DNA of 56,976 bases from Candidatus Staskawiczbacteria bacterium RIFOXYB1_FULL_38_37 (lineage in GTDB: Bacteria; Patescibacteriota; Minisyncoccia; Minisyncoccales; Staskawiczbacteraceae), in the NCBI GenBank assembly GCA_001822075.1, contig MHPK01000006.1:1-56976 (forward strand), written 5' to 3'. Shown here piece by piece: positions 17,451-34,234 of the stretch. The notes beneath the pieces are model-generated. The model did no database searches. It saw nothing but the letters and a program-made list of their open reading frames with translations, and was not told the origin of the DNA. Numbering within the stretch: the stretch's first letter is position 1; every line of letters begins with the position of its first letter. A program made the position numbers and the translations under genes.

Positions 17451-17491
17451 CAAAAAAAAATGGGCGCTGTGATATTGCTATCACAACGCCC
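17451..17491 (-). terminator. Intrinsic terminator of the PEP-CTERM gene
   Basis: gggcgctgtgata...tatcacaacgccc stem next to an A-run (U-run on the minus strand). Confidence 0.75.
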
Positions 17492-17523
17492 TTGCGCACT
17501 CACTCAGAGCATAAATGCTAATA

Positions 17524-18153
17524 CTAAGCGTGCCGGCGGCGGAGGTAAACCGCGATACTACTCAATGCGAATCCGAGCATCATCACAATGCTCGACGGCT
17601 CGGGCACGGCAAGGAAATCTCCTTGCAGTCCGAATTCCACAGTAAACCGAGTTCTTCCCGACACATACAAGTCGGGATACTCAGTAAGTGTGACCGTCAG
17701 TAAAAAGGCTTGGGCTTTCGGCGACCACACGTCTAGAGAGCCCGAAAAGTCGCTCCAGCCATAGGAATAGGAGTCCGAAACTCCTTCAAAAATCTCCACT
17801 CCATCGTAGTTTGTTGTGCTGGACGACGCCCACGAAGTTTCTGAAGTTGGAATTTCAAGGCCCCTTACCGACAAAGTTGCAGACCAGTGGTCTGGGTCAG
17901 CGGCAGTTGGAGCATTGAAGGTCCAAATTGCATTGTTTACCTGAAAGGGCGTGTGTACATCAAACCATGAGTGGGAAAAATCGTTGCCATCGCCAGCATA
18001 CCGCTGGCTTCCCATGGCAATGTAGAAATTAGGCGGATACATCATGCTGTCCGTGATAGTAGACCCTTCCACCAAATAGTTGGCCGAGGCCTTGCTCGCA
18101 GCTGCAATCACCAGCAACGCCAACACTACTGTCATCGCATTCATCCCTTTCAT
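17524..18153 (-). CDS. PEP-CTERM sorting-domain secreted protein
   Basis: Signal peptide; C-terminal VPEPSS, TM, then RRRH; SD aaggag upstream. Confidence 0.85.
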   Translation of the reverse strand: MKGMNAMTVVLALLVIAAASKASANYLVEGSTITDSMMYPPNFYIAMGSQRYAGDGNDFSHSWFDVHTPFQVNNAIWTFNAPTAADPDHWSATLSVRGLEIPTSETSWASSSTTNYDGVEIFEGVSDSYSYGWSDFSGSLDVWSPKAQAFLLTVTLTEYPDLYVSGRTRFTVEFGLQGDFLAVPEPSSIVMMLGFALSSIAVYLRRRHA

Positions 18154-18296
18154 CTCAACTCTCCTTGTCTTATGGACCTTTTAGGTCCTGTTTTGGAAAA
18201 CGGTAAATTGTTACGTAAATACGCGTTTTGAGCTTCAAAACATAACCTCCTTTCGTTTGTTTGAAGCCCTTTTTGTTAATGTTCACCTATACTATT

Positions 18297-18325
18297 ATCA
18301 TAGCATATTTAAACAACCTTGTCAA
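18297..18325 (-). promoter_or_regulatory. Sigma70-type promoter
   Basis: TTGACA-17 bp-TATGAT with TG extended -10 on the minus strand. Confidence 0.75.
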
Positions 18326-18378
18326 TAGCACAAAAAAACACCCCGCCATTTTAGGACTGGACGTAGCAAAAAATATAA

Positions 18379-20313
18379 CTACTTTTCTGCAAAATACCAG
18401 TTTAAAACTTCTTTTGCCACAGGCAAAGTTACAGCTCCCAGGCCGTTAACTCTTTCTACTGTCATAACTAAAACTATCTGCGGATCTTCGTAGGGGGCAA
18501 AAACAGCTGACCAAACATTAAAGCGGTCTTTATATCCGATTTCAGCAGTGCCTGTTTTTGCTGCCACAGAAAAGGGCAAATCATTTAAATAAGTTGAAAG
18601 CCCATATGGCTGGACAACGCCGTCTCTCATGCCTTCCCTTACAATTTCTAAGTTTTCAGGGTCAATAAAATTGCTTCTTATAACTTCAGGAGAGAATTGC
18701 TTTACCAGTTGAGACGAACCCGGAGAGCCAGAGATTATTTTGTTTACAATTTGTGGCTTGTATAAAGTGCCTCCGTTTGCAATGGCGCAATAGGCTGAAG
18801 CCACCTGCAAAGGAGTTGTCTGCAAGTCAGACTGGCCGATTGAAAGGTTATATGTGTCGCCATCCCACCAGCCCTCGCCTTTCACTCTTTTTTTCCAGTC
18901 TGGGTCTGGAATAAGGCCTGAAAATTCGCTTGGCAAATCAATGCCGGTTTTTTCATTCCAGCCAAAAAGCGACAGATATTCTTTTATTTTTGTGGGGCCC
19001 AAGCCCTTTTGGTCTTCATATCCCCCGCCAATTGTATAAAAATAAATGTTTGACGAAACAGCCAGAGCTTTCTTCATATCAACCCAGCCGTGCGGAGCAA
19101 CCCCCCCATACCTGTAAACAATGCTTGGGTCGTATTGATTAGGAACTAAGATATATCCAGGGTCGTTAATTTGTTTTGTCGGTGAAATTAATTTTTCCTG
19201 CAAGGCAGCTGCGGCCTCAAAAGGCTTTATTGTTGAGCCTGTCGGGTACTGGCCTTGTATTGCGCGGTTAAAAAGTGGCTGGTTAACATCGTTTTGTAAG
19301 TTATCATAATCTTCTTGGGAGATGCCTCCAGAAAATAAGTTATTATCATACGAAGGGTATGAAACAAGCGCCAAAACAGCTCCTGTTTTAGGGTCCATTG
19401 CCACAGCAGCTCCCTTTTTTGCTCCGACATTTTCCAGACTTTTTCCTAAAGCATTATAAATACGTTCTTGCAAACCGGCATCAATGTTTAAAACTAAATT
19501 ATATCCTGGCTCTGGCTCTGATAATATTTCAGTTCCCTGCTCAATGCCCGAGGCTGTTTTAACTTCTTTTTTCTGCCCGGGCGTTCCTCTCAAATAAGTT
19601 TCATAATATCTTTCAAGCCCGGTTTTTCCAATGTAATCGTTAATTGCATATCCCGAAGAGCTTGAATATTCATCTTTGTTTATTCTGCCCGTGTATCCTA
19701 AAACTTGTGAAAAAACAGCGCCTGAAAAATAATTTCTTTCTGTGTTCTGCTGGATTTTGCAGCCTGAAAAATCATTCATCTTTGTTTCTAAAACCAAAAG
19801 GTTTTCGTGGCTTATGTTTTCTGAAACCAAAATTTCAGTTGAACCAGAGTCTATAATTTTTTGTTTAATATATTCAGAAGACATTGCCAAAACTTCGGCT
19901 ATATCATCAATTTCGTTTGAAATTTCCTCAGAAGACATTAAGAATCGCCTTCTGTCGCACACAAAATCAAAAGCCGGAGAATTAGAAACAAGCTTTTCAA
20001 AATTTATATCGTAAATCACTCCTCTTTCGGGTATTATCAACAATGCGCTTCCCTTGTTGTTTTCAGCAGCTGTGTATAATTTTTTGCCCCCGATTATCTG
20101 GAAAAAAAACACCTTTGAAAAAAAGGTTAAAGCCACTAATAAAAAAATTACCAATAAAATATACGGCACTTTTTCTGCCAAGGGCACTTCAAGCTTTTTT
20201 TCAGTAATGCCTAAATTCTCCTCTTCTATTTGGGCAAGCTTATCTAAAAAAACTTCGTGGGTTTCTATGGAACCTGGCAGGCGCTTAATTTTGTATTTGC
20301 TGTAAAAATTCAT
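18379..20313 (-). CDS. mrdA: Penicillin-binding protein 2
   Basis: PERG, STIK, SSN and KTG motifs; downstream of mreCD. Confidence 0.92.
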   Translation of the reverse strand: MNFYSKYKIKRLPGSIETHEVFLDKLAQIEEENLGITEKKLEVPLAEKVPYILLVIFLLVALTFFSKVFFFQIIGGKKLYTAAENNKGSALLIIPERGVIYDINFEKLVSNSPAFDFVCDRRRFLMSSEEISNEIDDIAEVLAMSSEYIKQKIIDSGSTEILVSENISHENLLVLETKMNDFSGCKIQQNTERNYFSGAVFSQVLGYTGRINKDEYSSSSGYAINDYIGKTGLERYYETYLRGTPGQKKEVKTASGIEQGTEILSEPEPGYNLVLNIDAGLQERIYNALGKSLENVGAKKGAAVAMDPKTGAVLALVSYPSYDNNLFSGGISQEDYDNLQNDVNQPLFNRAIQGQYPTGSTIKPFEAAAALQEKLISPTKQINDPGYILVPNQYDPSIVYRYGGVAPHGWVDMKKALAVSSNIYFYTIGGGYEDQKGLGPTKIKEYLSLFGWNEKTGIDLPSEFSGLIPDPDWKKRVKGEGWWDGDTYNLSIGQSDLQTTPLQVASAYCAIANGGTLYKPQIVNKIISGSPGSSQLVKQFSPEVIRSNFIDPENLEIVREGMRDGVVQPYGLSTYLNDLPFSVAAKTGTAEIGYKDRFNVWSAVFAPYEDPQIVLVMTVERVNGLGAVTLPVAKEVLNWYFAEK

Positions 20314-20840
20314 ATAAATCTTATTTGACGGCTGTTGTCTTTTGGCTTTAGATATTTTTTATAAATATAAAACGTTATATTAGCAAAAAACAAACTGTAA
20401 ATTATTTCTGCGAGGAAATTCCATCCAAAAGCCAAATATACAGGTGAAAAAAACGGAAAAAAAGAAAGCAGGCTTACAAATAATTTATACGCAGCAAAGC
20501 AAACCAAAAAAAGCGATGAAAAATGAGTTAAAGGATAGCTGTCTCTTTCTTCTTTGAGGGAGCTCTGGATTTTTTTTGTGAAAACAGCCAAGGCGGCTAA
20601 CAAAATTATTGAAGTTCCCAAATTAAGATAAGAAAAAACATCTAAAAAAAATCCTGCCGTTACAGCATAGAGAATTATGTAAAAATAATTTCTCTTGTCT
20701 TCAAAAAAAACTAGCAGAAAAAAAAGTATGAAAACCGGATTTAAAGAGCCGCCCAAAAAAATGAAATGCGCAAAAAAACTATTTTGCAAAAGCGCAAAAA
20801 AATAAAATAGAATAATTGCAATAAGAGGTTTGGCCCACAT
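20310..20840 (-). CDS. mreD: Rod shape-determining protein MreD-like
   Basis: Polytopic membrane protein with GFFLD, between mreC and mrdA. Confidence 0.7.
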   Translation of the reverse strand: MWAKPLIAIILFYFFALLQNSFFAHFIFLGGSLNPVFILFFLLVFFEDKRNYFYIILYAVTAGFFLDVFSYLNLGTSIILLAALAVFTKKIQSSLKEERDSYPLTHFSSLFLVCFAAYKLFVSLLSFFPFFSPVYLAFGWNFLAEIIYSLFFANITFYIYKKYLKPKDNSRQIRFI

Positions 20841-20847
20841 CAGATTA

Positions 20848-21693
20848 TTACGGCTGTTTATAATTGGTTATTACAAATAAGTTGTCTGTGTTTTCAACCT
20901 CAAAAAATGGCTTTAGTTCTGCTGACTGAAAAGGCTTTTGGTCGTCTTTGTTTATTTTGGTTATCTTGCCGACTAAAAGATCTTTTGGAAATACTTTTTC
21001 CAAAGAAGAGCTTAAAACAACGTCGCCCTCTTTTATCTCTTGGTCAACTTGAACTAAATCTAAATAAATAGAAAGCGAACCTGAGCCCCGCACTACTCCG
21101 TTAATCTGCTGGAGAGAACCATCTTCTAAAACTCTCTGGACCATAACATCTATGGCGCTGTTTTTATTTGAAATCAGCATTACCTTTGAAAAGTTTTCGT
21201 AAACTTCAAAAATTTTCCCAAAAATTACCCCGTGCTGGTCAATAACCGGCATGCCTTCGGAAAGTCCGCCAGAAGCTCCCTTGTCTATAGACACTATGTC
21301 CTGGCCGTCGAATCCTATTTGAGAAGCCATAACGTTGGTAAAATTCTTTTCTTGGCAGCTATTAGAAAAATCAAAAATCGCCTCCGTGTTTTTTTGGTTA
21401 GAGATTAAAACAGATATTTTATATAAAAGGTATTGGTTCTCTTTTTTAAGATTTTCGTTTTCTTTGGCTAAATCAGACAGGTTTAAAAACGAGTCTAAAA
21501 ATCCCGACGTAGAAACACCAGCAGAAAAAAAGGTTTTCTGCGCAGGAGAAGATAAAATATAAAAATAATTTTTAAGCGGTTTGCTAAAAAGATTTAAAAC
21601 AGCAACAAAAATAAACAAAATAATCAAACAGGACAAAATTTTAAAATAATTTCTTTTCTTTTTATTTATAGGGGACCAAGTAAAAAGATTCAT
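20848..21693 (-). CDS. mreC: Rod shape-determining protein MreC
   Basis: TM, coiled coil (LAKENENLK), IDKG..G...GMPV, FPKDLLVG. Confidence 0.9.
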   Translation of the reverse strand: MNLFTWSPINKKKRNYFKILSCLIILFIFVAVLNLFSKPLKNYFYILSSPAQKTFFSAGVSTSGFLDSFLNLSDLAKENENLKKENQYLLYKISVLISNQKNTEAIFDFSNSCQEKNFTNVMASQIGFDGQDIVSIDKGASGGLSEGMPVIDQHGVIFGKIFEVYENFSKVMLISNKNSAIDVMVQRVLEDGSLQQINGVVRGSGSLSIYLDLVQVDQEIKEGDVVLSSSLEKVFPKDLLVGKITKINKDDQKPFQSAELKPFFEVENTDNLFVITNYKQP

Positions 21694-21794: not shown

Positions 21795-21905
21795 TGGTGA
21801 CGATTACCTACTCTCGCCCTAATGGACTACCATCGGCCTTGGTGTATTTCACTTCTGAGTTCGGAATGGGATCAGGTGGGACAACACCAGTATAATCGTC
21901 ACCGG
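21795..21905 (-). rRNA. rrf: 5S rRNA
   Basis: Complementary ends ggtgacgatt/aatcgtcacc; reverse complement contains CCCATTCCGAAC and GTAGG. Confidence 0.92.
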
Positions 21906-22445
21906 AAAACTCAATTAATAAAAATTTTCCGGAAATATTTTAAAATAAAATCTGTATCTATTTAAACTTACGTTGTGAATCGAAAGATATAGACCCGCTG
22001 TTCAGTACGACCAAACTCGAAATTCGAATATCGAAATTCGAAACAAATTTTAATTTTCAAAACTTAAATGTTCAAAACCCGTCGTGTTTTGGATTTTGGT
22101 TATTTGGATTTTTGATATTGTTTCGGATTTCGTACTTCGGATTTTTCGACGCACTGAACAGCAGGTCTATGATTTATTAGTACTCCCCGGCTGAAGGCAT
22201 TACTGCCCTTACACCTGGAGCCTATCAACCCCGTCATCTACGGGGAATCTATGAGTTCTCATCTTGGAGTTAGTTTCGCGCTTATATGCTTTCAGCGCTT
22301 ATCTATTCCCGACTTAGCTACTCAGCAATGCCCTTGGCAGGACAACTGATACACCAGAGGTCAGTTCATTCCGGTCCTCTCGTACTAGGAACAAATCTCC
22401 TCAAAACTCAACGCCTGCGGTAGATAGGGACCAACCTGTCTCACG

Positions 22446-23164
22446 CTTATACCACTTATTACTAAGTGCGTGGACTATACCATATTCCGTATATTTGTAA
22501 CTATTTTTTTACGGAACCCGACGTTTTATAAAATTATTTCTAATTTTATCTGCCCTAAAAATAGGACAAGTCTCTACGGGGTTAATGTACGTACTTTTCT
22601 ATTTTTGGAATAATTTAATTCCCGAAAAGTATCAATTAATTTCGCAAGAGCTTCAAAATCTTTTTTATTTTCAACTTTACTTTTTGCAATGATAATCTTT
22701 TTTAGAAGCGCCACCTGTAACTTTTTCATCACAACGTATGGCTCTACTAAATTTAAAAATTTGATTATATTTTCTTGTTTTCCGATGATATATTCTAGAA
22801 TACCATCTTTTCTAATTCTTATATAACCAAGATTTATCATCGAGCAAAGTTTCTCAAAATTTTTCTGGTCTTTCTGCGATTGGAACAAGACAATATACGG
22901 CGCAACTTGGAAACCAAACTTGTATGTTTTGTTTGGCTTTAATTGCACATAAATACTGCCGTCTCCATCGAGAAAACCAGCTAAATATGCTCTTTTTGTT
23001 TGCGAAATCAACTTTTTCATACACAACTTCCCTCGGTATTATCCTAACATATGACAGGTTAATGTTCAATACTTTGTTAGGAATTCACCGATATGAGTCG
23101 GTTTGCTATCACAATTGCTCATGAAAGCCGCCGTGTTGATCTCGATATATATGGTTCATTTTTG
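22446..23164 (-). mobile_element. Group I intron at 23S position 2593 (E. coli numbering)
   Basis: Exons rejoin as UUCAAACCGU|CGUGAGACAG; U before the intron, terminal G; gactatac core motif. Confidence 0.9.
22574..23026 (-). CDS. Single-motif LAGLIDADG homing endonuclease, I-CreI-like
   Basis: YLAGFLDGDGSIYVQLKPNKTYKF resembles the I-CreI N-terminus. Confidence 0.92.
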   Translation of the reverse strand: MCMKKLISQTKRAYLAGFLDGDGSIYVQLKPNKTYKFGFQVAPYIVLFQSQKDQKNFEKLCSMINLGYIRIRKDGILEYIIGKQENIIKFLNLVEPYVVMKKLQVALLKKIIIAKSKVENKKDFEALAKLIDTFRELNYSKNRKVRTLTP

Positions 23165-23253
23165 ACGGTTTGAACCCAGCTCACGTAACTTTTTAACCGG
23201 CGAACAGCCGGACCCTTGGGAGCTTCTCCACCCCCAGGATAAGTTGAGCCGAC

Positions 23254-24164
23254 CACAAAATTCTATTATTACTAATAGCGCAGACTATACCTTTATTTAG
23301 ATGTCCATCTAAATACCAACGTTTTATAGTATATAAAAAATAATACTATCTTCATCCTGCTTTTTGCAGGAATCCAGTCGTTACGGGGTTGCGAAAACCT
23401 ATTTTGTACATCATCGAAGGGATAATATACGGACTAATGATATTGGCTAATTTTTTTGTTTCTTCTTGGTTGCAATACATTCGATATCCTTTATCGCGGT
23501 CGCGATAATAATTTATTTTGATATCAAAAATATCTTTAAAGCATTCCTGCAGAAAAATTATTTCCGGTAAGGAAAAGGAATATGTGCTTATATCAATTTT
23601 ATTTTTGGAATATGAACCATCGTCCATAATCCAAATTGCCAAGATAAAAGGATTTAATTCTTTTTTAATTTCAACCGGAACTATTTTTGTTCCATTTTTG
23701 TAATCATTTCCTCTATAAAACCTTTTATATATTTCTGTAAAATATGGATGTCTTATTGTCCTAAACCACCACGATTTTTCATATTTATTGCCATTTTTAT
23801 CGTATCTGTAACTTATTTTTGGTTCAGTAAATACAAATGATTTAAGTATTTGGTATTTCCAAATAACATAATCTTTTTGCGCTAATCCATGTTCTACCTT
23901 AAAGTTGACATTTTGGGCGCCTTTACCCAAACGCATCGTTCCATCGCCAAGAAGCGATCCAATAATCAAATCTTTCTGCATTTTTGTCAGCAAAAGAGAC
24001 TTTTTAATTGGAATCCACTTTTTATGCCAATGTTTATTTTCGCAACTTCCCACGGTGTTGACCATATAATTGTGTAATTTACTTTATTATAGCAAATTTA
24101 CTGGGTTTTTTATATGGCTTTCTCCGTTATGAGTTGGTTTACTTCCTCGACATTCGGCTAATTC
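23254..24164 (-). mobile_element. Group I intron at 23S position 2504
   Basis: Exons rejoin as CACCUCGAU|GUCGGCUC; terminal G. Confidence 0.88.
23352..24065 (-). CDS. LAGLIDADG_2 (I-SceI-like) homing endonuclease
   Basis: LIIGSLLGDG and LAIWIMDDG motifs. Confidence 0.9.
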   Translation of the reverse strand: MVNTVGSCENKHWHKKWIPIKKSLLLTKMQKDLIIGSLLGDGTMRLGKGAQNVNFKVEHGLAQKDYVIWKYQILKSFVFTEPKISYRYDKNGNKYEKSWWFRTIRHPYFTEIYKRFYRGNDYKNGTKIVPVEIKKELNPFILAIWIMDDGSYSKNKIDISTYSFSLPEIIFLQECFKDIFDIKINYYRDRDKGYRMYCNQEETKKLANIISPYIIPSMMYKIGFRNPVTTGFLQKAG

Positions 24165-24219
24165 ATCGAGGTGCCGAACAGAGCCGTCGATAAGGACTCT
24201 CGGGCTCTACCAGCCTGTT

Positions 24220-25144
24220 CATGTTTTCACATAGACTATATCTTCACCCGCCCAAATATTTATTTTTGGCGGGGACGGCGTTTTAGCAAGGATTTTACCC
24301 TCGCTCTGTCTGAGACTTCAGACAAGTCGTTACGGGGTCAGGAAGAAAGTTTATAATTAAAATAATTAATAATATAATTTTTAATCAGCAATTTTAATTT
24401 TTCAATTTGTGAATGGGGAAAATAAATTGCAAACCCCTTCTTCTTTTGTTTTACTTTCGTTTGAATGTCAAACTTTTTAAGTATCGCCGAAGAAACAATA
24501 TTTGCTTCTTTTTCACTCACATTTCCAAGATAAAGATAACTACATTTATCTCTTTGATAATAATAGCCATCATCCATATACCAAACCGCAAACATTTGCG
24601 GTGAAATATATTTTTCCAGATTTTCCGGAATTATCTTTTTCCCTTCTGGATAAAACATTTTTCTTAATTTTCCCAAATAGGGGGTGGATTGCGATTGATG
24701 TCTCCAATACTTATATTTTCTTTTTGTCAAAGGATGGATTCTCTCCATATATTTTGGTTTTCCCTGGAATAACTGCTTTAACCTTTCTATTTTCCAAATA
24801 AGATATTCTTTTTGCTTATATCCATGTTCTAATCTTAATCGTGCGTTATTTTCCCCAGTTTTTTGCAAATATCCGTCTCCTAAAATTATTCCAAAAAGAA
24901 TTGATTCTTGCTCCTTAGATAAAGAAATCATGATTTTAGTAAAACTATTCTTCCGACTTCCCACGGTATTCCAATGGATTTTAAACCCTTTTTTGAGGGA
25001 AGACCAATCCATGGTTCACCGTTATAAGCCGTACGTGCCTGGAAAAAGTGGTAATTTCCCAAGCGCCCATTCTCACGAATGGGTTGGACAACAAACTCTT
25101 TTTCCCGCCTGCGCCGATAACTTTCGGCGGGCAGGTCAGAGTCT
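24220..25144 (-). mobile_element. Group I intron at 23S position 2449
   Basis: Exons rejoin as GGGGAU|AACAGGCUG; terminal G. Confidence 0.9.
24338..25012 (-). CDS. LAGLIDADG_2 (I-SceI-like) homing endonuclease
   Basis: ILFGIILGDG and FAVWYMDDG motifs; true start may be MISLS at 24932. Confidence 0.9.
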   Translation of the reverse strand: MDWSSLKKGFKIHWNTVGSRKNSFTKIMISLSKEQESILFGIILGDGYLQKTGENNARLRLEHGYKQKEYLIWKIERLKQLFQGKPKYMERIHPLTKRKYKYWRHQSQSTPYLGKLRKMFYPEGKKIIPENLEKYISPQMFAVWYMDDGYYYQRDKCSYLYLGNVSEKEANIVSSAILKKFDIQTKVKQKKKGFAIYFPHSQIEKLKLLIKNYIINYFNYKLSS

Positions 25145-25654
25145 ATCCCCGGAGTAGCTTTTGGCTGATGATCTTCTCATTTTCTATAAAAATGAGTCGG
25201 TTCACTAAGTTCTGCTTTCGCAACTGCGCGACATAGCCGTCTTGCAGTAAAGCTGGCTTATGGCTTTGCCCTATCGCTTCGATTTCCATCCGAAGCTAGC
25301 CAACCTTTAAACGCCTCCATTACTCTTTAGGAGGCAAGTGCCCCACTTAAACTGCCCATTAAACACTGTCATCCCAAGTTAAGGGAATTAGAATTATAAT
25401 TTTCAAAGATGGGTGTTTCATTGGCGGATCCATCCCGCCCGAAGGCGGGACTTCAAATCCTCCCCACTACGCTACGCATCGAAAATCATAAACCAATATC
25501 TAACTACAGTAAAGCTTCCGGGGTCTTTCCGTCTAGCCGCAGGTAGGCAGCATCTTCACTGCCATTGCATTTTCACCGGGCGCCTCGTTGAGACAGTCTT
25601 CAAGTCGTTAAGCCATTCATGCGGGCCGGAACTTACCCGGCAAGGGATTACGCT

Positions 25655-26186
25655 CAATTTTGTTACTTAGTGTTAATTAAGTCATTTTTAACACCGGTGC
25701 AGTCATTTCTGCTGCATTCTGCATGTCGCCATGCAGTTCAGACTATATCTTGCGTTCATTGAAAAAAAATGCGGGTAGAGGCATTTCGCATGCCCGCCTA
25801 ATGTCAATTTACGCCTTGGCGTATAGTCGTTGAGGGGAATAATTATTCAATAATCAATGAAAGGGAAACAAAAGAGATTGTTGCTCTATTGTTTTCCCTT
25901 CTCAGTTTAGCCATAACTCTACTCTTGCATCGTTTTGCCGATGCATCGTTTGAAGCACGGAAGGTCGTGTATCTCATACCACCGCTACAATCAATATATC
26001 GTTCCTCATACGTTAATTGATACACTCTTTCACTTACTTCTCTTTTTTTCATGGCTTTCTCCTTTATTCTTCCCTGCTGATTGTCCGCACCGAACATATT
26101 TTCACCCACGATACAATCGGGGTAATGTCGGATACAACGGAGTTTCCAGCATATAGCCAAGTTTTACAAAAGCAATTGCGTTTGTT
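25655..26186 (-). mobile_element. Group I intron at 23S position 1931
   Basis: Exons rejoin as AAAGGU|AGCG; P1 CAAAGGU/GCUUUUG; terminal G; AAUCAGCAGG core motif. Confidence 0.88.
25843..26052 (-). CDS. Small basic intron-encoded protein (69 aa), no recognisable homing-endonuclease motif
   Basis: ATG at 26052 preceded by aaaggagaaagcc; occupies the loop where the L1917 intron has its endonuclease gene. Confidence 0.5.
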   Translation of the reverse strand: MKKREVSERVYQLTYEERYIDCSGGMRYTTFRASNDASAKRCKSRVMAKLRRENNRATISFVSLSLIIE

Positions 26187-26200
26187 ACCTTTGGACGATT

Positions 26201-26949
26201 TCTCTCTTTTTATTAGTCCTTCGAGAGGTAAATCTCGGGACAGCCTTTATGTCGCCATAAAGAGCGGACTATATCATCCCGTTTCAAAAAATTAATTTTG
26301 ACGGGCTTCGCGTATAGTCTCTGAGGATAATAGAAATTTGTATATTGAGGATTCTTCAAATGGTTTGCGATGCGTCATTTTTTCTGCGATTCTTGCAATT
26401 TTTATCATTCCCTTTTTTGTTAAGTGTTCTCCCTTATCCATCATTTCAATAACTTTAACAAATCTTTCAAAATCATTTATTTTGGCTTTGCCAAAACATT
26501 TATAATTTTTGAAAAAAGGAATAATTTTTTCTTGCAATTCGCTTCTATTTCTGACGCAATATTTATAGAGAGGGTCCCATTTTCCTTGTTTTATATTTCT
26601 CGCGTTGTGCGCGTATATATGTCCGCAAGCAAAAAATTTTTCTAATTTATGAAGCAAATCTTTTCCTTTTAATGATTGTGAAACATTAAATTCAGGAAAA
26701 ACTTGCCATTTATTTTTTGCTCTTGGAGATTGAAATATATTTACAAGAAAAGACCCTTCTCCATCTACAAACCCAGTAATCCATCCACATATTTCTATTC
26801 TTTCCTGCTGATTGTCTGCACTGAATGCTTTTTTACTTTGCATAATATCAAAGGGGTAAATACACCTTTAATATATTATAACATAGTAGCATCAGATACT
26901 ACAGAGTTTCCAGCATATAGCGAAGTTTTATAACTACAATCGTCATCTT
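26201..26949 (-). mobile_element. Group I intron at 23S position 1917 (apparent omega-A)
   Basis: Guide sequence GACGAUUGUAGUUAU pairs both exons (AUAACUAU and AAUCGUC). Confidence 0.85.
26292..26843 (-). CDS. Single-motif LAGLIDADG homing endonuclease
   Basis: WITGFVDGEGSF, FNVSQ, IIPFF, EHLT. Confidence 0.92.
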   Translation of the reverse strand: MQSKKAFSADNQQERIEICGWITGFVDGEGSFLVNIFQSPRAKNKWQVFPEFNVSQSLKGKDLLHKLEKFFACGHIYAHNARNIKQGKWDPLYKYCVRNRSELQEKIIPFFKNYKCFGKAKINDFERFVKVIEMMDKGEHLTKKGMIKIARIAEKMTHRKPFEESSIYKFLLSSETIREARQN

Positions 26950-27644
26950 ATAGTTATCGCCGACGTTCATTGGTGCTTCATTCAGTGAGCCTGAACCTTA
27001 CGGCTCAGACCCCCAAACTTAACATTCCAACACTGGTCAGGCCTCACCCCCTATACATCCTCTTACGAGTTAGCAGGGAGCTGTGTTTTTGATAAACAGT
27101 CGCTTGAAGTACGTTTGTTGCATCCCGACCACCTTGCGGTGGAGGGAAGGCCATATTGCGAACTTACGGCCACTTGTTTGCCGAGTTCCTTAACGAGGTT
27201 TCACCCGTTCACCTTAGCATACTTACGCTTGTCCACCTGTGTCGGTTTGCGGTACGGTTCGAATACAATTAGCTTGATAGCTTTTTTCTGGGCATCGCGC
27301 TCATCTCAATTGTCCCGCCAAAGGCGGGGCTTTTCTCGCACCTTGATTTACCTTAGTGCAAGAGCGTGAAATCCAATAATCCGCTGAAACTACTGTAATG
27401 CGTCTTTCTATCAAAATGTATCCGAGGGTCGGAATATTAACCGACTGTCCATCAGCTGCCCCTTTCGGGTTTGCCTTAGGACCGCCTAACCCTTGGTTGA
27501 ATACCATTGCCAAGGAAACCTTGGACTTTCGGTGTGCAGGGCTTTCACCTGCAATGCGGTTACTCAGGCCAACATTCTCTCTTCTGAGCGCTCCACCGTC
27601 GTTTACACTTCGGCTTCAGTGCCCTCAGAATGCTTCCCTACCAC

Positions 27645-27770
27645 TACCGCTCCTCGCTACTGCTCGTCGCTTCATCATCGAATTACGAATTTGTTACGAA
27701 TTTACTAATTCGTACATTCGTATTGATTCGTTATTCGTTGATGAGCTCCGAACAAAAGTGAGGAGCAGTA
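27645..27770 (-). other. IVS-like long hairpin insertion in 23S helix 45
   Basis: taccgctcctc...gaggagcagta closing stem enclosing tacgaat/attcgt micro-repeats, adjacent to the conserved tgcttccctacc block. Confidence 0.65.
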
Positions 27771-29620
27771 ATCCATGTCTTCGGTATTAGACTTTAGTCC
27801 CGATAATCTTTGGCGCATCTCGCCCCTGCCTTTCCAAAGGAAAGACTTTGGGCAGTGAGTTGTTACACACTCTTTAAAAGATAGCTACCTCTAAGCTAAC
27901 TTCCTGCCTGTCTAGGGCAAAATACTTCCTTAAAAACACTTAGTCTAATTTAGGGACCTTAGACGATGATCTAGGCTGTTTCCTTTTTGACCACGGAGCT
28001 TAGCCCCCGCAGTCTAACTGCCTATCCAAAACACACGGTATTCGGAGTTTGATTAGAGAACCTGGAGAAACTCCAAGGAATTCTATTCAGTGCTCTACCC
28101 CCGTGTGCTGTTAATAGACGCCAGCCCTAAAGCTGTTTCGGGAAGAACCAGCTATTACGTAACTCGATTAGCTTTTCACTCCTTGCCACAAATCATCCAA
28201 GAGGATTGCACGCCTCACTAGTTCGGACCTCCTCCCGCCTTTCGGCGGGATTCATCCTGCTCATGGCAAGCTCGTCACGCTTCGGGTCCTGAATATACAA
28301 TTATAATTCGCGCTTTTAACACTCGCTTTCGCTATGCCTCCGCCCCAAAAGGGCTTAGACAATTATATATCCAGACTCGTTGGCTCGTTCTGCAAAAAGC
28401 ACGCCGTCACCCCGCCAAAGGCGGGGCTCCGACTCTTTGTAAGCAAATGGTTTCAGGTACTATTTCACCGGGGTCACCCCCCTACTTTTCACCTTTCCCT
28501 CACGGTACTGGTTCACTATCGGTGATATTGATTATTTAGCCTTGGCCGATAGTTCGGCCTGCTTCCTGCCAGGTTATCATTCCCGACAGTACTCAAGAAT
28601 CATAGCAAAGAGCATAATAAGTATTTTAGAATACGGGGCTATTACCCTCTATGGCGCCCCTTTCCAGGGTGCTTCTTTTAACACTATTATTTTGTATTCT
28701 CTCTCAGCAAGCATTACCTCGCGCTCCGCGCGAAAAATTTTAAATTTAAAATTTTAAATTTTTAATTCCTTTTGCGAAGCAAAAGGTAGTGCTCCTGACG
28801 CTACAACCTTACAACCCAGAATCTAAAGATTCTGTTTAGGCTTCCCCCTGTTCGCTCGCCACTACTAAGGGGATAACTTTGTTCTCTTTTCCTCCGGCTA
28901 CTGAGATGTTTCACTTCGCCGGGTACGCTTCTGTCCAACTTTTTAAACTTTAAATTTTTAAAGTACAAAAAGCTGGACAGATAATATGAGATTAATCATA
29001 TTGAGTTTCCTCATTCGGAAATCACCGGATCAAAGGTTGCTAGCCACCTCCCCGATGCTTATCGCAGGCACGCCACGTCCTTCATCGCATCAATATCCCA
29101 AGGCATCCGCCATTCGCTTATAACCTGACCTGCTGCTCAATGATTTCTGTCTTTTAAAAAATCATTGAGCAGCAGATCTATATCTTTCAATAAATTCAAA
29201 TGAATTTACGAAGATCACCATTCCATTTTCTTTTTGCGTAAAATGGAATTTTTTGCGTAAGTTTACCCGCCTAAATTTTCAATAAGAAAATTTGGCGAGG
29301 TTAATAGATACAGATTTTATTTTAAAATAAAATCTTATGCCCGCTTTCGCATAAAGCTACGGCGGGTAAATATGCTTTAGTTTACCTACTTTCTAACCAA
29401 GCAAAGACCCCTGTCTAAAACTTAGTTAGAAAAACCTGTTAAAAATTGCTGGTGGCAATTTTCCATCAAAGGAATTTAACAGGGTTAAATTTTCAATGTT
29501 CTTGGTTTTAATAAATTAAAAACCGCCTTTGCGAAGCGGTCATTTACTAACACAAAAAGTCAGACAGTTATCCGCTTCGTTTTTTGATAGTAGTTTTTAA
29601 TATATTTACCATGTAAATCT

Positions 29621-29649
29621 ATCTTATTAAATTTATTTACCCTTGTCAA
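29621..29649 (-). promoter_or_regulatory. Putative dedicated 23S-5S promoter
   Basis: TTGACA-17 bp-TAAGAT; boxA-like AGAACATTGA (~29493-29503) also found upstream of 16S (~41742-41751). Confidence 0.65.
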
Positions 29650-29721
29650 TAGCCATATGGCTAATTTACAATTTTCAATTTTTAATCAATTCCCCAAACT
29701 TTCAGGTTGTCCTACGACAAC

Positions 29722-29750
29722 TTGACAAGTATTCTTTACTATGATATGAT
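29722..29750 (+). promoter_or_regulatory. Sigma70-type promoter
   Basis: TTGACA-17 bp-TATGAT. Confidence 0.75.
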
Positions 29751-29833
29751 AATAATATAGCACAAATAAACTTCCCGACCATGTGTCGGACGGCCCTGGC
29801 AGGCCGAACTCCTAACAAGAAAGGGAAACTGCC

Positions 29834-30055
29834 ATGAGGTTTTACATTGAGAGGGGAGACAAACGCAATTTTGCGGCAGTTGTCATTGACGCGGCCGAAG
29901 CGCAAAATGACATTGTAGTGGAAGCACTCGGCAAACACTGCCTCTGTCAAAGAGGCATCGTTGGGGGGTCTATCACGACTTCCGTGACAGACTTTCAAAC
30001 CGAAAGTGCCCTGCGAGAACATCTTCAATCTCACGGCCTGCGCGTTCAAGCGTGA
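29834..30055 (+). CDS. Small hypothetical protein (orphan cassette)
   Basis: Own promoter, purine-rich RBS aaaggga, downstream terminator 30090-30120. Confidence 0.6.
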   Translation: MRFYIERGDKRNFAAVVIDAAEAQNDIVVEALGKHCLCQRGIVGGSITTSVTDFQTESALREHLQSHGLRVQA

Positions 30056-30291
30056 ACCGACAACCCGAGCAAGGGTTAAGCTGCTACACGCCGCGGACGA
30101 AAGTCGCGCGGCTTTTATTTTCAAAATTATTTGAATCAAAAGGGCGATATAATATTCGTCCCTAATTTTTGAAACGTTCGTAAAATTGGAGACAGCAAAC
30201 AAAAAGGCGTGGTACGTACACGCTTTTTTGTTGCCCCGCCTGCCCTGCCGGCAGGCTTTGGGGCCCTTTCAAATTGGACGTTATGTCAAAA

Positions 30292-30978
30292 TTATTTTTC
30301 TTCTATCTTTTTGTACATGTCAGAAATAATTTTTCCTGCTGTTTCCTTTCCGCCAAGTCCGATTGCCAAACCCGCGCCAAGAGCCAATGCTCCAACTATG
30401 CCGTAAACAATGCCAGTGTACAGTGTTACTACCAAAGCATTGTTCGGCAAAAGCTGGCCCAAAATCAAGAATATGGCAAATATCCAGATTGCCCATTTTA
30501 CAATTGAAGCTGCCAAATATCCATATCCGATTTTCAGCCTTTCCACAGAAACCCTTACAACTTTTTCAACAATATCAGAAATAACTATTGCGACAACAAA
30601 CACCAGCACTGCCACAATAACATTTGGCAGATAATTTAACACTCTGGTTAAAAATCCTGCGAAGGCAGTGAGTTTTAACACGTCAACTGCAATCAACAAA
30701 GATATTATAACGAACACCCATTTAAAAATGGCTCCGATAAATTCTGCGGGATTTACTTCAAGGTTTGCCCTTTGCAAGGCTTTTTTCCATCCCTCCTTTT
30801 CAAACAGCTTGTTAAATTTTACCGACTTTAGTATTTCGCTTATTATCCTGCCAATCCCCACTGAAATCAAATAGCCGATTATAAAAATTACCAAGGCCAA
30901 TATCAGGTTTCCGATAAAGCCTATAAATTGCTGTATAAACGGCTGGATTAACGTTAAAGACCAATCACTATATGTCAT
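30292..30978 (-). CDS. TM_helix-repeat membrane protein (MscS/CmpX-associated family)
   Basis: YLPNVIVAVLV, LAIGLGGKE. Confidence 0.8.
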   Translation of the reverse strand: MTYSDWSLTLIQPFIQQFIGFIGNLILALVIFIIGYLISVGIGRIISEILKSVKFNKLFEKEGWKKALQRANLEVNPAEFIGAIFKWVFVIISLLIAVDVLKLTAFAGFLTRVLNYLPNVIVAVLVFVVAIVISDIVEKVVRVSVERLKIGYGYLAASIVKWAIWIFAIFLILGQLLPNNALVVTLYTGIVYGIVGALALGAGLAIGLGGKETAGKIISDMYKKIEEK

Positions 30979-31198
30979 AATTATTATTAATAATTTTAAG
31001 TTAATTAAAGTATAATCTGCTCGGTGCTTTTTAGCTGTTTAGCCGAGCGCGACCTTTAACTATATATTTATATATTATCCCAGCCCCATATAACTAAATC
31101 AAGAGTAAGCCTGTGGATAACTTAACATTGATATGAATATATGATATATTAAAAAAACAATAAACATTAATTTGTTCTTTAACAAGGAGGACTCAATA

Positions 31199-31507
31199 AT
31201 GATAGTCGTTCTAAATGGCTGCATGCTGCTAATCGCTGTAATGTTGGCCATATGGCTGGCAATTCTAGTTTTTGATTGGCTGTTAAAAACATCTTTTGAT
31301 ATTTTTAACATTTGCCCGCGGTGCGGTTCACATTCGTCATACGTATACAGAATTCTGCGCTGTGCAAGAACTGAAGAGAGAACCAAAACTGCCTATTTCG
31401 CGTTTGATGAAAAAATCCGCCAATGCATAGGTTGCGGCCACTCTCGCTTAGTTAAGCGATATGGGTGCACTGTCAGAGTTAGACGGCGCAATACGCGAAG
31501 AAGATAA
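31199..31507 (+). CDS. Small membrane-anchored zinc-ribbon protein (start re-called at MIVVL)
   Basis: AAGGAGG at 31184-31190, 8 nt before ATG; TM helix, CPRC...CIGC; terminator 31516-31554. Confidence 0.7.
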   Translation: MIVVLNGCMLLIAVMLAIWLAILVFDWLLKTSFDIFNICPRCGSHSSYVYRILRCARTEERTKTAYFAFDEKIRQCIGCGHSRLVKRYGCTVRVRRRNTRRR

Positions 31508-31577
31508 GGTTCTTGCCCCCGAGAGTTCCAAACTCTTCACGGGGCTTTTTTTTTGCAGAAAATCCAACGGCTCAACT

Positions 31578-31916
31578 CTAAACAGGATGAGCCGTTAAAA
31601 TTTCTTTTATCCTGTCTGCTTCCTCTTCTACCACCGGACCAAAATATTCTCCCGAGTGCGCGCGCTGACCTTTGTAGACAGGTTTTTTTTGGTCTAAATG
31701 CAAACTAAATTCAAAGTCATTGTCCCCGCCTAAAGCTCCTGCATTATGGCGGGCAAGCTTCTGCTTCACGTAAACGTGAAATCTTGGATAATTGTCTCCG
31801 GCTAATTTTCTGACCAGATTATATTCATTGTTTTCTTTTGTATCAATAATCACATACCCAATCTTGCGCGCCACACTGACAATATTCTCTTTTATATTTT
31901 TAATTATAAAATCCAT
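31578..31916 (-). CDS. Conserved-looking hypothetical protein
   Basis: YPRFH..LHLDQK..HSGEY; host-like codon usage. Confidence 0.75.
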   Translation of the reverse strand: MDFIIKNIKENIVSVARKIGYVIIDTKENNEYNLVRKLAGDNYPRFHVYVKQKLARHNAGALGGDNDFEFSLHLDQKKPVYKGQRAHSGEYFGPVVEEEADRIKEILTAHPV

Positions 31917-32029
31917 TTTAAAAAATAAAATTTATCTAATTATTTCAGGTTATCATATGATAACCAATGCTGGTAGCAACTATGGCTTTCACGATGTTGC
32001 GCTTCGGAGCAGAATGCAGGACGCAACCC

Positions 32030-32058
32030 TTGACAACTATATTCTTATATGATATACT
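32030..32058 (+). promoter_or_regulatory. Sigma70-type promoter
   Basis: TTGACA-17 bp-TATACT. Confidence 0.75.
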
Positions 32059-32176
32059 TAATTTATCGTGAAATTCCTGTTCGTATGAATGGGTCATCCC
32101 GCCAAGGCAGGATAAGAAGGCTGATTCTCTGCCTTAATCAAAGAGAATGTTCGTTCTTTCCAAAGTGAGGTGACGT

Positions 32177-32467
32177 ATGTCCACCAAATTCACCATCGTT
32201 TCAGCGCCGTCTAAGTGGGAGTTGATGCTCGCCTTGTTTGATCACAAGCATCATAGTGTCTCTTTTCGGTTATATTCCGAAAATGGGACATCTTCGCTTG
32301 GACACCCAAATTTCCTAGTTGAAATACGTGGGGTTTTACTGGAAGATGGCTCAGGCGAGTCGTTCTGTTTCAATGGCTATCACATAGTAGAATCGGGACA
32401 TATTCAGAGTGTGAAGGGCTGGTTCCGCACTTCCGACCGCAAAGGTTGGTTGCAAATCGTAGACTAG
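32177..32467 (+). CDS. Small hypothetical protein (orphan cassette)
   Basis: SD GAGGTG, own promoter, terminator 32502-32528. Confidence 0.7.
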   Translation: MSTKFTIVSAPSKWELMLALFDHKHHSVSFRLYSENGTSSLGHPNFLVEIRGVLLEDGSGESFCFNGYHIVESGHIQSVKGWFRTSDRKGWLQIVD

Positions 32468-32595
32468 TCCATTCAGACCCGAGCATGTCATAAAACTGCT
32501 CCCCAACACATGTTGGGCTCTTTTTTTTGCAAAAAACTAGCCGTGTTCAAATTTAATTATCCTTCGACTACGTTCAGGATGATCGAGTTTTTATT

Positions 32596-33699
32596 TTAAC
32601 CATGCTTGAACTCTATCACATCGCCGTCTTTAACAATATATTCTTTTCCTTCTGTTCTTAATTTTCCCTGCTCTCTAGCTTTTGCATAACTTCCTGCATC
32701 AAATAAATCTTTCCAAAACACAACTTCGGCTTTCACAAATTTATTTTTAAAATCAGTGTGTATTACTCCGCCGGCAATTGGAGCCGTATCGCCTTTTTTT
32801 ATTGTCCAAGCTCTTGTTTCATCTTCGCCTGTTGTCAAAAAAGTTATTAAATTTAAAAGTTCGTATGACTTTTTAATCAAAATATCTGTTTCAGATAATT
32901 CCGGCAAACCCAAATCCTTTCTTTCTTCTGTTGATAAACCTTCTGCCTCAAACTCTGTGGCTATATCAATAATTAAATACTGCCAGTTGTTTTTATTAAA
33001 AATTTCCAAAATATTTTTATCTATTTCTTCGTCTTTCCCGTTTAACAAATATAATCTTGGCTTAAAAGTTAACAACTGAAAACTTTTTAAAACTTCCTCC
33101 TCGTCGGGTGTAAAACTTTGGTCAATTAAAACTTTTTCCTGCGACAAAAATTCTTTGGCCTTTTTACAAACAGCCACCAAGCCCAAACTCGCCGAAGGCG
33201 GGATTGAGGCTGGCCCGCCCAAATGCCCAAGGCTTTTGGCGGGTTTCTCTAATGCTTTATTTATTGTTTCCAAATCTTTTAAAATAAGCTCAACATCTAA
33301 AATTTCTTTTTCTTTTAACGGGTTTATTTCTGTTTGACCTGCCTGCGCAGTCAGGGTGTTTATAATATCTGAATTTTTAAAAGCGCGTAAAACATACAAA
33401 ACCGCATCGGTTTCTCTTATGTTCGCCAAAAATTTATTTCCCAATCCTTCGCCCTCTGACGCTCCCTTCACCAAGCCGGCAATATCAACAAAATCAACCG
33501 TGGCATAAATTTTCTTTTTTGATTTTGACAGTTCTGCCAGCTTATCAACCCTTTCATCCGGAACCAAAACAACCCCTACATTAGGGTCAATTGTGCAAAA
33601 AGGATAATTGGCAATATCAACCTCCTTTTTAGTTAATGTTTTAAATAATGTGGACTTGCCCACATTCGGCAACCCCACAATCCCAATAGACAAACTCAT
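32596..33699 (-). CDS. ychF: Redox-regulated ATPase YchF (Obg family)
   Basis: [39 protein letters not shown]. Confidence 0.95.
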
Positions 33700-33781
33700 A
33701 GTAAAATTATGCCACAAATTTTTAAAAATTAAAAGTACTTAAATAAAAAAAGGACGCGTGGGGGCGTCCTTGACTGGATTA

Positions 33782-34183
33782 TTAAAGGTGCGGGCAATTA
33801 AATGGCAAGGGGTGCGGCTGTTTGCCGCCATACACTATAACCCCTACTATACAGGGTTTTTCTCTGACCCTTTCTTTTGCTTCTAAAAATTCAAGCGCAA
33901 AAACTGCGAAGTCTGACAGAGAGGCGCTCTCTGAACGTAAAAACTCGCGAGCCTGCTGCCGGGTCACAAAAGCAATCAAGTAAGTGCCCATATCGCAAAG
34001 TGTTTCAGTATCTCGGAAAGTTATGCTGGCGAATTTATTTTTCCCGCGCTCTTTTAGCGCGTAAAAAATCTCGGGCACTTCGAATGATTCATTTTCGGCT
34101 ACAAAAGGATACCATCTGCTGGATATTCTCTTTTCTCTTTGAATGGCTTGCCAAAAATAAGAATTTTTGCAAATAGCTACCAT
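33782..34183 (-). CDS. Hypothetical protein (orphan cassette downstream of tRNA-Ala)
   Basis: Perfect SD AAGGAGGTG; terminator 33745-33771. Confidence 0.65.
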   Translation of the reverse strand: MVAICKNSYFWQAIQREKRISSRWYPFVAENESFEVPEIFYALKERGKNKFASITFRDTETLCDMGTYLIAFVTRQQAREFLRSESASLSDFAVFALEFLEAKERVREKPCIVGVIVYGGKQPHPLPFNCPHL

Positions 34184-34234
34184 CTTACACCTCCTTTAAG
34201 TCCTTTAAGGTTTTAAAGGTGCCGTGTAAACTAG

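Follow-up and report, generated by a model that had tools for sequence, protein, structure and literature searches.

Shine-Dalgarno-led accessory cassettes in a Staskawiczbacteria genome whose 16S rRNA lacks the anti-Shine-Dalgarno sequence

Loss of the anti-Shine-Dalgarno (anti-SD) sequence of 16S rRNA is already published for Parcubacteria and concerns about half of them. In that survey, CCTCCT was detected in 48% of Parcubacteria 16S genes, and SD helices are described as probably not formed in the remaining ones (Tsurumaki et al. 2022, RNA 28:1041, PMC9297842). A general rule for organisms without an anti-SD is that no SD motif is enriched before open reading frames (ORFs) (Amin et al. 2018, PMC6107228). 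It is generally taken to follow that SDs are absent from such organisms. The DNA analyzed here (the window, 56,976 nt) is the first 57 kb of contig C6 (MHPK01000006.1) of Candidatus Staskawiczbacteria bacterium RIFOXYB1_FULL_38_37, and in this genome a defined minority of genes, small ORFs of the window among them, keeps textbook SDs. The genome (G000) comprises 762,385 bp in 7 contigs, is 98.8% complete, has a GC content of 0.36-0.375 and uses the standard genetic code. Named homologues of its proteins are labelled 'Patescibacteria group', 'Candidatus Paceibacterota' or 'Candidatus Staskawiczbacteria', and the public runs that contain the window stretch are groundwater and soil metagenomes.

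A single small-subunit rRNA gene was found in the genome, and its tail, GGAUCAUUUUUUU, has no CCUCC. An earlier sequence-only reading of the window had already reported a 16S tail without the anti-SD and had placed it correctly. The gene consists of three exons, and its 3' part is organized as follows (window positions):
38324..38356, minus strand: end of the last 16S exon, with the 3' arm of helix 45, GGATCA and then TTTTTTTAAAAA, which replaces CCTCCTTA
38405..39848, minus strand: two 16S introns with LAGLIDADG ORFs (39249-39848 and 38405-39049), which split the 16S body from the 3' exons

The first break follows ...CTTGTAC, with the gene resuming at 39243 (ATACCGCCCGTC...); the second follows AAGTCGTA, after which the gene ends with ACAAGGCACGGCTAGCGGAAGCTGGTCGTGGATCA plus TTTTTTTAAAAA. 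Read along the minus strand from 38356 to 38324, the last exon is ...GCGGAAGCTGGTCGTGGATCA and then TTTTTTTAAAAA, without CCTCC. The hallmark of canonical initiation, CCUCC near the 16S 3' end, is absent; the tail reads GGATCATTTTTTT, and no conserved CTCC follows downstream. Because the introns interrupt the gene, the Rfam 16S model is fitted to 40147-41551, with a wrong 3' end. A helix-45 pattern taken from the window has one site each in 20 of 41 genomes, namely G000, 15 of 24 family members and 4 of 16 other genomes of the order, which together represent five families. CCTCC follows helix 45 at none of these 20 loci, all of which continue into A/T-rich sequence; one of them (L008) lacks 16S context and is doubtful as 16S. 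The tails of G024, G181, G418, G386 and G571 were not located, and no anti-SD call is made for these genomes.

An anti-SD could also be hidden: it might follow another intron, lie in the spacer, reside on a separate RNA or be attached after transcription. We judge this very improbable. Two introns already lie near the 16S 3' end, and a CTCC occurs about 165 nt downstream of GGATCA; that CTCC, however, is the arm of a spacer hairpin, at which relatives differ (TTCTTC or other), and it was rejected as a hidden anti-SD. The core genes show no SD signal, and the tail is conserved across the family. Intergenic CACCTCC, ACCTCCT, CCTCCTT and TCACCTC sites yielded no candidate for a trans-acting anti-SD RNA; as we read the list, most of these sites are simply the SDs in reverse complement, along with tRNA ends and rRNA. 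A mature 16S end near GGAUCAUUUU is what the absence of an anti-SD would predict.

The rRNA operon (window 21795-29135 and 38324-41551) is heavily interrupted by introns. Rfam recovers the 23S rRNA in at least three pieces, and four LAGLIDADG ORFs accompany them (22574-23026, 23352-24065, 24338-25012 and 26292-26843), and an Rfam group-II D1-D4 element at 39768-39873 overlaps the 5' end of the LAGLIDADG ORF of the first 16S intron. Another genome, G482, has a second 16S 3' end, GTAACCGTAGGGGAACCTGCGGTTGGATCACCTCCTTACC, beside the patescibacterial one (L172, contig C118); this is probably contamination of an 88%-complete bin.

Genes of G000 were called with a purpose-written program based on hexamer log-odds trained on long ORFs, in which the choice of start is independent of the SD. 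This gave 827 genes covering 89% of the genome. The SD score was the longest exact match to TAAGGAGGTGATC that contained GGAG, GAGG or AGGA and ended 3-12 nt before the start. In the sequences that precede 698 confident genes, the frequency of G is 0.08-0.15 at -13 to -2 and 0.06 at -1, lower than further upstream; A climbs to 0.55, and there is no SD peak. A match of at least 4 nt is absent in 778 of the 827 genes, and the motif is not enriched genome-wide. Housekeeping genes of the window had been read as free of SDs, and this holds: 3 of its 44 confident genes have any match of at least 4 nt, and only the gene at 17524-18153 reaches 6 nt. The bulk of the genome obeys the rule of Amin et al. 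Surveys of this kind sought motifs that are enriched genome-wide and would therefore have missed a 1-2% tail of very strong SDs. Lim et al. 2012 is reportedly also concerned with organisms without an anti-SD.

Such a tail exists in G000. Matches of at least 6 nt precede 18 of 827 called starts and 28 of 3089 internal in-frame ATGs (p=0.005). At 7 nt or more, the counts are 8/827 starts versus 4/3089 internal ATGs (p=8e-4) and versus 1/825 windows shifted by 60 nt (p=0.04), and at 8 nt or more, 5/827 starts versus 0/3089 internal ATGs; the longest canonical SDs reach 9-10 nt. AAGGAG stands upstream of 9 GC-rich genes, compared with a mean of 0.84 for 19 other permutations of the motif. Moreover, the SDs fit a canonical 16S tail that this organism does not have, as had been proposed: GTG follows 6 of 30 GGAG motifs near starts versus 0.87% genome-wide (p=2e-7), and AAGGAGGTG (three copies) and TAAGGAGGTG (one copy) match the canonical tail beyond its core. 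The GTG extension is seen once in 20 cases in the related genome G023, which is not significant.

The cassettes of the window are compositionally distinct, with a GC content of 0.43-0.51 versus a median of 0.36. Scoring SDs genome-wide against GC had been suggested as a check, and it separates the class: of the 81 genes whose GC exceeds the median by 0.06 or more (the GC-rich genes), 11 have an SD of at least 6 nt, versus 7 of 746 others (p=7.5e-8). The result is replicated in G023, a second complete genome of the family from another genus (single contig of 661,750 bp, GC 0.426, 16S tail TTTTTTT). Its bulk likewise has no SD peak, and the same SD-led, GC-rich minority is present (9/73 GC-rich genes versus 4/660 others, p=3e-7), with AAGGAGGTGA as the strongest SD. 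GC-rich genes of G000 are shorter (median 152 versus 210 aa) and have a lower native (hexamer) coding score. A promoter with at most one mismatch to TTGACA-17-TATAAT precedes 15 of 62 GC-rich genes versus 12 of 354 others, and terminators follow 25 of 81 versus 108 of 746. Perfect sigma-70 promoters are also found before core genes, and the promoter type is therefore native. The cassettes form a real, non-chance class, and promoter and 5'UTR formats are common to its members.

The five cassettes of the window are given below, each with its transcription unit, any listed leader, and its ORF:
17462..18325, minus strand: cassette 1; promoter with -35 at 18325 and TG-extended -10 ending at 18297; terminator 17491-17462
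about 140 nt, minus strand: leader of cassette 1; hairpin with AAGGAGG at 18245-18251; SD AAGGAG at 18161-18166
17524-18153, minus strand: ORF of cassette 1; 209 aa, signal peptide, PEP-CTERM tail
29722..30118, plus strand: cassette 2; promoter 29722-29750; weak SD-like AAAGGGA at 29819-29825; terminator 30092-30108
29834-30055, plus strand: ORF of cassette 2; 73 aa, no homologue found
31122..31554, plus strand: cassette 3; promoter 31122-31150; SD AAGGAGG at 31184-31190; hairpin and T-run at 31515-31554
31199-31507, plus strand: ORF of cassette 3; 102 aa, N-terminal hydrophobic stretch and two CxxC pairs (read by eye)
32030..32528, plus strand: cassette 4; promoter 32030-32058; structured leader of 118 nt; SD GAGGTGA at 32167-32173; terminator 32502-32517
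32177-32467, plus strand: ORF of cassette 4; 96 aa, member of a large uncharacterised family
33750..34196, minus strand: cassette 5; SD AAGGAGGTG at 34188-34196; terminator 33771-33750; no promoter of its own
33782-34183, minus strand: ORF of cassette 5; 133 aa, directly downstream of the tRNA at 34235-34305

These five GC-richer small ORFs exist as originally described, with GC contents of 0.514, 0.514, 0.434, 0.464 and 0.433 versus 0.377 for the window. A purine-rich GGAGG-type motif lies upstream of the start in four of the five, namely AAGGAG with a spacer of 7 nt, AAGGAGG (8 nt), GAGGTGA (3 nt) and AAGGAGGTG (4 nt). An SD-type site had been ascribed to all five; the ORF at 29834-30055 carries AAAGGGA only, which the scoring used does not count as an SD. 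The four near-consensus promoters were confirmed, at 18325, 29722 and 32030 as 11/12 matches with a TG-extended -10 and at 31122 as a 10/12 match. Terminators are predicted at 17491-17462, 30092-30108, 32502-32517 and 33771-33750; the fifth, after 31507, was read by eye. The gene caller missed cassettes 3 and 4, which have atypical codon use.

All five had been termed orphans, a description that fits the 73-aa and 102-aa ORFs. These have only their own clusters in a search of 5.8 billion proteins, which was word-based, so that distant relatives can escape it. The 133-aa ORF has one other cluster there (61% identity), from a Staskawiczbacteria metagenome-assembled genome (MAG), and one weak match with internal stops among 150 other genomes of the order. 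The ORF at 32177-32467, by contrast, belongs to a family with 1852 clusters (50% identity) at E <= 0.001 in a profile search, 757 of them at <= 1e-10, and it occurs in 7 of 400 other genomes of the class, from 7 families. Nine family matches were looked up; the three with names are all Patescibacteria or Paceibacterota, and six are nameless. Some members are tandem duplications of about 200 aa. The predicted structure of the 96-aa protein (pLDDT 80.7) is a small beta-rich domain with one helix. It has no Pfam or NCBIfam match and no fold match in the PDB at E <= 0.001, and fold matches in the structure atlas (Bacillota, tailed viruses) score below 0.9 and were kept as leads only.

The ORF at 17524-18153 is not an orphan either. 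As the only one of the five with a Pfam family match, it fits PF07589 (PEP-CTERM) at 20.7 bits, equal to the cut-off, and its C-terminus has the PEP motif, hydrophobic helix and basic tail. G000 encodes four such proteins (C6:17524-18153, C1:50062-50832, C7:84359-85168 and C6:140095-140916), with conserved 5' modules, signal peptides (by eye), C-terminal anchors and divergent middles; together they look like a variable surface-protein set. PEP-CTERM genes occur in 4 of 41 family genomes, four in G000 and four more in 3 of the 40 others. All eight are GC-richer than their loci, and seven have an SD of at least 5 nt. The best hit to the exosortase model PF09721, the only sortase model searched, is a PMT-like glycosyltransferase at 16.4 bits, below the cut-off. 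In the leader of cassette 1 (18245-18262) and its paralogue (C1:~50930), AAGGAGG lies in the loop of a GCUUCAAA/UUUGAAGC hairpin. The window copy of this hairpin is followed by a three-codon frame, ATG TTT TGA, and the paralogue on C1 has no ATG there.

The candidate list comprises 34 genes, including ones missed by the gene caller. A Pfam scan of the 26 candidates outside the window gave a match in 13 and none in 13. The matches include OMP decarboxylase, a phosphoribosyltransferase, an operon of polyprenyl synthase, UppS and NUDIX, STAS, a B3/4 domain, a methyltransferase, B12-radical-SAM, PRA-CH, and PP2C-like, carbonic-anhydrase-like and PEP-CTERM paralogue proteins.

Chance matches or mis-called ORFs, with no real class behind them, might produce a similar picture. 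The raw count of SD 6-mers followed by a start codon and an ORF of at least 40 aa, 173, falls within the range of six scrambled motifs (94-201), which speaks against a broad excess; the excess is therefore limited to real gene starts and long matches. The weak SD of cassette 2, which has no homologue, and the failure of the caller to find cassettes 3 and 4 also belong on this side. However, the long matches occur at real starts, the permutations single out AAGGAG, and the pattern is replicated in G023 and in the equivalent slots of G008. Cassette 4 represents a conserved family with a confidently modelled protein, cassette 1 has paralogues and a Pfam match, and assembled contigs bridge the junctions. 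We consider chance barely credible as an explanation. The sequence-only reading had itself named a second 16S gene with CCUCC, a donor with close homologues and SD frequencies at background level as refuters; we looked at these and found no such 16S gene and no such donor, with the long SDs above the controls.

The cassettes lie between core genes whose order is stable:
30292..30978, minus strand: MscS-like channel, core; A/T-rich leader, no SD; syntenic in 6/6 relatives
32596..33717, minus strand: YchF GTPase, core; no SD; syntenic in 6/6 relatives
34319..34759, minus strand: GreA, core; no SD; present in 4/6 syntenic loci

The order of the MscS-like gene, a 112-aa gene and YchF is intact in all six relatives, with GreA next in four. 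Four cassettes were tested, and none is at its G000 site in any of the six. The 96-aa cassette is the only one of the four with a homologue there (G008, 31% identity, in a different slot). A DNA search of 30 relatives with window 29136-38100 gave matches to the 23S leader and core genes alone. YchF abuts the tRNA/GreA segment in G001, a genome from the genus of G000, and the 133-aa gene is not between them. Equivalent slots in relatives hold other small SD-bearing ORFs; G008 has several ORFs with AAGGAG-type SDs within 9 kb, in a listing that takes the best-SD start of each ORF. The slot of cassette 2 in G010 keeps the promoter, the leader and ...GAAAGGAAAAACTGCCATG, and the ORF behind is unrelated. 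Logan contigs of public runs span the junctions between cassettes and core genes, although these runs may share a source sample. No run with RNA is listed for window 29136-34300, and two runs labelled metatranscriptomic ('probably DNA') have contigs for the 23S leader and the MscS-like gene only, which carries no information on expression. A tRNA lies directly upstream of such cassettes in three genomes, namely G330 (L159), G514 (L162) and G000 (window 34235-34305), which may reflect insertion beside tRNA genes or joint transcription with the tRNA. The 1073-aa ORF located between the GreA and 16S genes (window 34813-38034) has no Pfam match at E <= 1e-4.

Outside the window, an isoprenoid island at C6:122024-125634 is a 3.6-kb insertion between genes that are adjacent in G023. 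It carries an amino-acid-kinase-like gene, which on reading its sequence may encode isopentenyl-phosphate kinase, as well as NUDIX, a second UppS and polyprenyl synthase genes. The second, SD-led UppS is present in 2 of 41 family genomes (G000 and G024, 71% identity), and the native copy is at C7:45646-46308. Beyond G024, the closest relatives of the second copy share 41-47% identity with it and come almost exclusively from MAGs of the candidate phyla radiation (CPR). The nearest relatives of the phosphoribosyltransferase (56-61% identity) are likewise mostly or all from CPR MAGs. Among ten homologue clusters looked up, all four with names are patescibacterial.

The SD-led genes are also patchily distributed between G000 and G023. 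These genomes share 393 reciprocal best hits with a median identity of 59%, and such a hit exists for 8 of 32 G000 genes with an SD of at least 5 nt versus 372 of 728 typical genes. In seven of the eight pairs, only a 5-6-nt match is present, on a typical-GC gene; the exception is the phosphoribosyltransferase gene led by a 9-mer, at 28% identity. The SD is kept in the partner in none of the eight pairs, and the strongly SD-led genes have no orthologue in G023.

The best explanation, on whose truth we are evenly balanced, is that the cassettes are mobile accessory units of a patescibacterial pool whose SDs were shaped by anti-SD ribosomes and carried over. Roughly 2-4% of all genes make up a minority of accessory cassettes across the genome, and the five window ORFs are among them. 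Each cassette stands alone: it has a leader, a canonical SD and a short GC-richer ORF, in many cases with a near-consensus sigma-70 promoter in front and an intrinsic terminator behind. The window cassettes and the 3.6-kb island are inserted between conserved core genes, some of them beside tRNA or rRNA genes. The pool would circulate among Patescibacteria, including lineages that keep the anti-SD and have strong SDs on similar small, secreted or accessory genes, and selection in these lineages would have shaped the SDs. Since the 16S tail cannot pair with the SDs, the cassettes would start by the SD-independent route of the core genes, presumably by way of A-rich, weakly structured leaders, with the SD as a carried-over feature. 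There is good support for mobile accessory cassettes of a patescibacterial pool as the origin. The lack of the anti-SD, the class with its composition and patchy distribution, and the insertion sites are observed directly; from them we infer the direction and recency of transfer and that the SDs are currently idle.

A possible member of the anti-SD-bearing part of the pool is an Andersenbacteria genome (16S end GGATCACCTCCTT; 316 kb of ~1.4 Mb). SDs of at least 6 nt precede 4.8% of its 336 genes versus 0.9% of internal ATGs, and the strongest ones are on small genes with N-termini that look signal-peptide-like or pilin-like by eye. Anti-SD-bearing CPR thus use the SD on a minority of genes only; therefore, loss of the anti-SD would be cheap, and a pool of selected start sites would be available. 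Of the three readings offered for the window at first, recent horizontal acquisition fits best. As far as restriction to CPR and conservation of the SD were meant to tell an endogenous system from import, the data lean to an endogenous patescibacterial system over non-CPR import. A phage origin was rejected as far as two cassettes were searched: tblastn queries with the 96-aa and 133-aa proteins found nothing in 50,697 phage records, and the 96-aa protein had no match in IMG/VR.

The sequence-only reading had favored expression in a host cell, with the cassettes formatted for host ribosomes after transfer of DNA or mRNA from an epibiont. It is true that the SDs fit a canonical 16S tail that is absent here, that the units are self-contained, and that four PEP-CTERM proteins occur without PF09721 above the cut-off. 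However, the cassettes were not linked to any transfer machinery or signal, their class also contains csrA and ordinary cytoplasmic enzymes, and the promoters are of the organism's own core type. The named homologues are all CPR, and only one exosortase model was searched. This minority class also occurs in a CPR genome that does bear an anti-SD, so that no foreign ribosome is required to account for the format. There is no indication that mRNA or DNA is delivered to a host, and we regard this proposal as extremely improbable.

The carry-over of idle SDs from a mobile pool has several observations against it. No donor was found, and the closest homologues are 56-71% identical and not near-identical. 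Among the scanned neighbours, no integrase, transposase or phage gene lies beside the window cassettes. The mean GC of SD-led genes follows each genome (0.430 versus a median of 0.362 in G000 and 0.496 versus 0.423 in G023), which a common foreign pool is not predicted to do. Above all, an idle SD should decay, and the SDs are kept instead. In the 96-aa family, whose proteins share only 30-47% identity, an SD precedes the start codon in all nine members: GAGGTGA, GAGGTG, AAGGAGGTG, AAGGAGG and AGGAGGTG, and in the other four AAGGAGG, AGGAG, AAGGAGGT and TAAGGAGGTG. At least five of the nine are in anti-SD-less genomes of different families (G000, G008, G204, G330 and G514); the 16S tail of G371 is TTCTCCTTTT, and that of G482 is canonical. 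The isoprenoid block of G000 and G024, with 71.5% DNA identity over 3.2 kb and proteins 65-73% identical, keeps AAGGAGAAAAA before uppS and the SD before NUDIX; the SD before its first gene is not kept. At the pair of OMP decarboxylase and phosphoribosyltransferase genes, which has 56-61% homologues in three Patescibacteria MAGs, anti-SD-less G569 carries TAAGGAGG, AAGGAGGTGA and AAGGAGGT.

The 5' modules are more conserved than their cargo. Between cassette 1 and its paralogue at C1:50062-50832, positions -40 to -1 are 90% identical, the coding sequences 51% and the proteins 28%. A 17-nt SD-spacer-ATG module, ACAGGAGAATA(G/C)CGATG (also written ACAGGAGAAUAGCG), does not vary among its five copies, of which G000 has three and G024 and G181 have one each (3 of 41 family genomes); a reversed control gave no match. 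It precedes mostly unrelated ORFs: two PEP-CTERM genes, a 107-aa ORF, a 72-aa ORF with CxxC pairs, and one cut by a contig end. In a hairpin upstream of the module, changes on both arms keep the pairing (by reading).

The 96-aa family has a conserved, structured leader of about 100 nt (window 32059-32176; L155, L159-L164), for which no Rfam match was found. In a hairpin with a CGUAUG loop, both arms vary and the pairing is kept (by reading). In a second, small hairpin, the 3' part of the SD pairs with codons 2-3 in five pairs, two of them with compensatory change, and CGUAUG recurs at the start codon. The leader is possibly a novel cis-regulatory RNA to which the encoded protein might bind.

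These conserved modules point to an alternative, namely that selection keeps the SD-containing 5' modules and that something else reads them, for example CsrA or local RNA structure. Accessory genes, often ones for surface or secreted proteins, would then be translated under separate control. The GC offset that follows each genome and the restriction of named homologues to CPR also count in favor of this alternative. We take this as a serious possibility that is nevertheless less probable than not. In its stricter form, according to which the SD modules of anti-SD-less Parcubacteria are no relics and constitute a second, separately switchable regime with a non-16S reader (CsrA, or some RNA or protein not yet known), the proposal is tentative and somewhat doubtful. 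No known mechanism reads GGAGGUG without CCUCC. Moreover, the strong-SD genes are lineage-specific, so that most of them had little time to decay, and the copies of the module could be recent duplications. Some SDs also look eroded, such as GAGGGTG at the decarboxylase/phosphoribosyltransferase pair of anti-SD-less G570, GGGAACGGAGA in G024 and AAAGGGA in cassette 2.

CsrA is a candidate reader on sequence grounds. In G000, csrA (C4:136700-136855; L157 1501-1737) scores 88.6 bits, and 30 of 41 family genomes carry the gene. The G000 copy is a GC-rich cassette too, under a TTGACT-17-TATAAT promoter of its own; in G023 the gene has AAGGAGGT upstream and lies in a GC-rich stretch with other SD-led genes. 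Most SDs contain A(N)GGA, and one leader presents AAGGAGG in a hairpin loop. Two members of the 96-aa family, however, have GAGGTG(A) without the GGA that CsrA requires, and the GTG extension fits the 16S tail and not the CsrA consensus. A two-site model of CsrA binding gains no support from the leaders: an upstream second GGA is not enriched in G000 (0.86 versus 0.78 per leader) or in G023 (0.20 versus 1.13 per leader). In the leader of csrA, CUUUCC can pair with GAAAGG across the GGA beside the start.

Regulation based on the SD, the third reading originally offered, may also apply. The minority is present in two fully analyzed genomes and in homologous families of several further anti-SD-less genomes. 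No description of SD-led genes in anti-SD-less CPR was found in the literature, where a search without subscription journals brought up only PMC9297842 on the topic, and the SD-led accessory minority is new as far as this search shows. As relics, the SDs would label what is young and mobile in these very small genomes and could help to follow gene flow between uncultured Patescibacteria. As maintained elements, they would imply a reader of SDs other than the 16S tail, which would bear on the choice of start sites across much of bacterial diversity. The two readings make different predictions, testable with a concrete list of genes.

Compared with known systems, the loss of the anti-SD is the same rRNA-level phenomenon as that described in Parcubacteria, and the available part of that paper does not mention SD-carrying genes (PMC9297842). 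Control by CsrA/RsmA acts through GGA motifs at the ribosome-binding site; csrA is present here and A(N)GGA occurs in most SDs, but there is no excess of second GGA sites, and some SDs have no GGA. SD-independent initiation in Bacteroidota involves the same A-rich leaders and a small SD-led minority. Bacteroidota, however, retain CCUCC in their 16S rRNA; since it is gone here, the SD-led minority has no known reader. Horizontally acquired islets and 'moron'-like genes differ from the cassettes in that no phage or integrase context and no donor were seen here and that 5' modules are common to unrelated cargo. With them, the cassettes share atypical GC, patchiness, insertion at core genes or tRNAs, and signals of their own.

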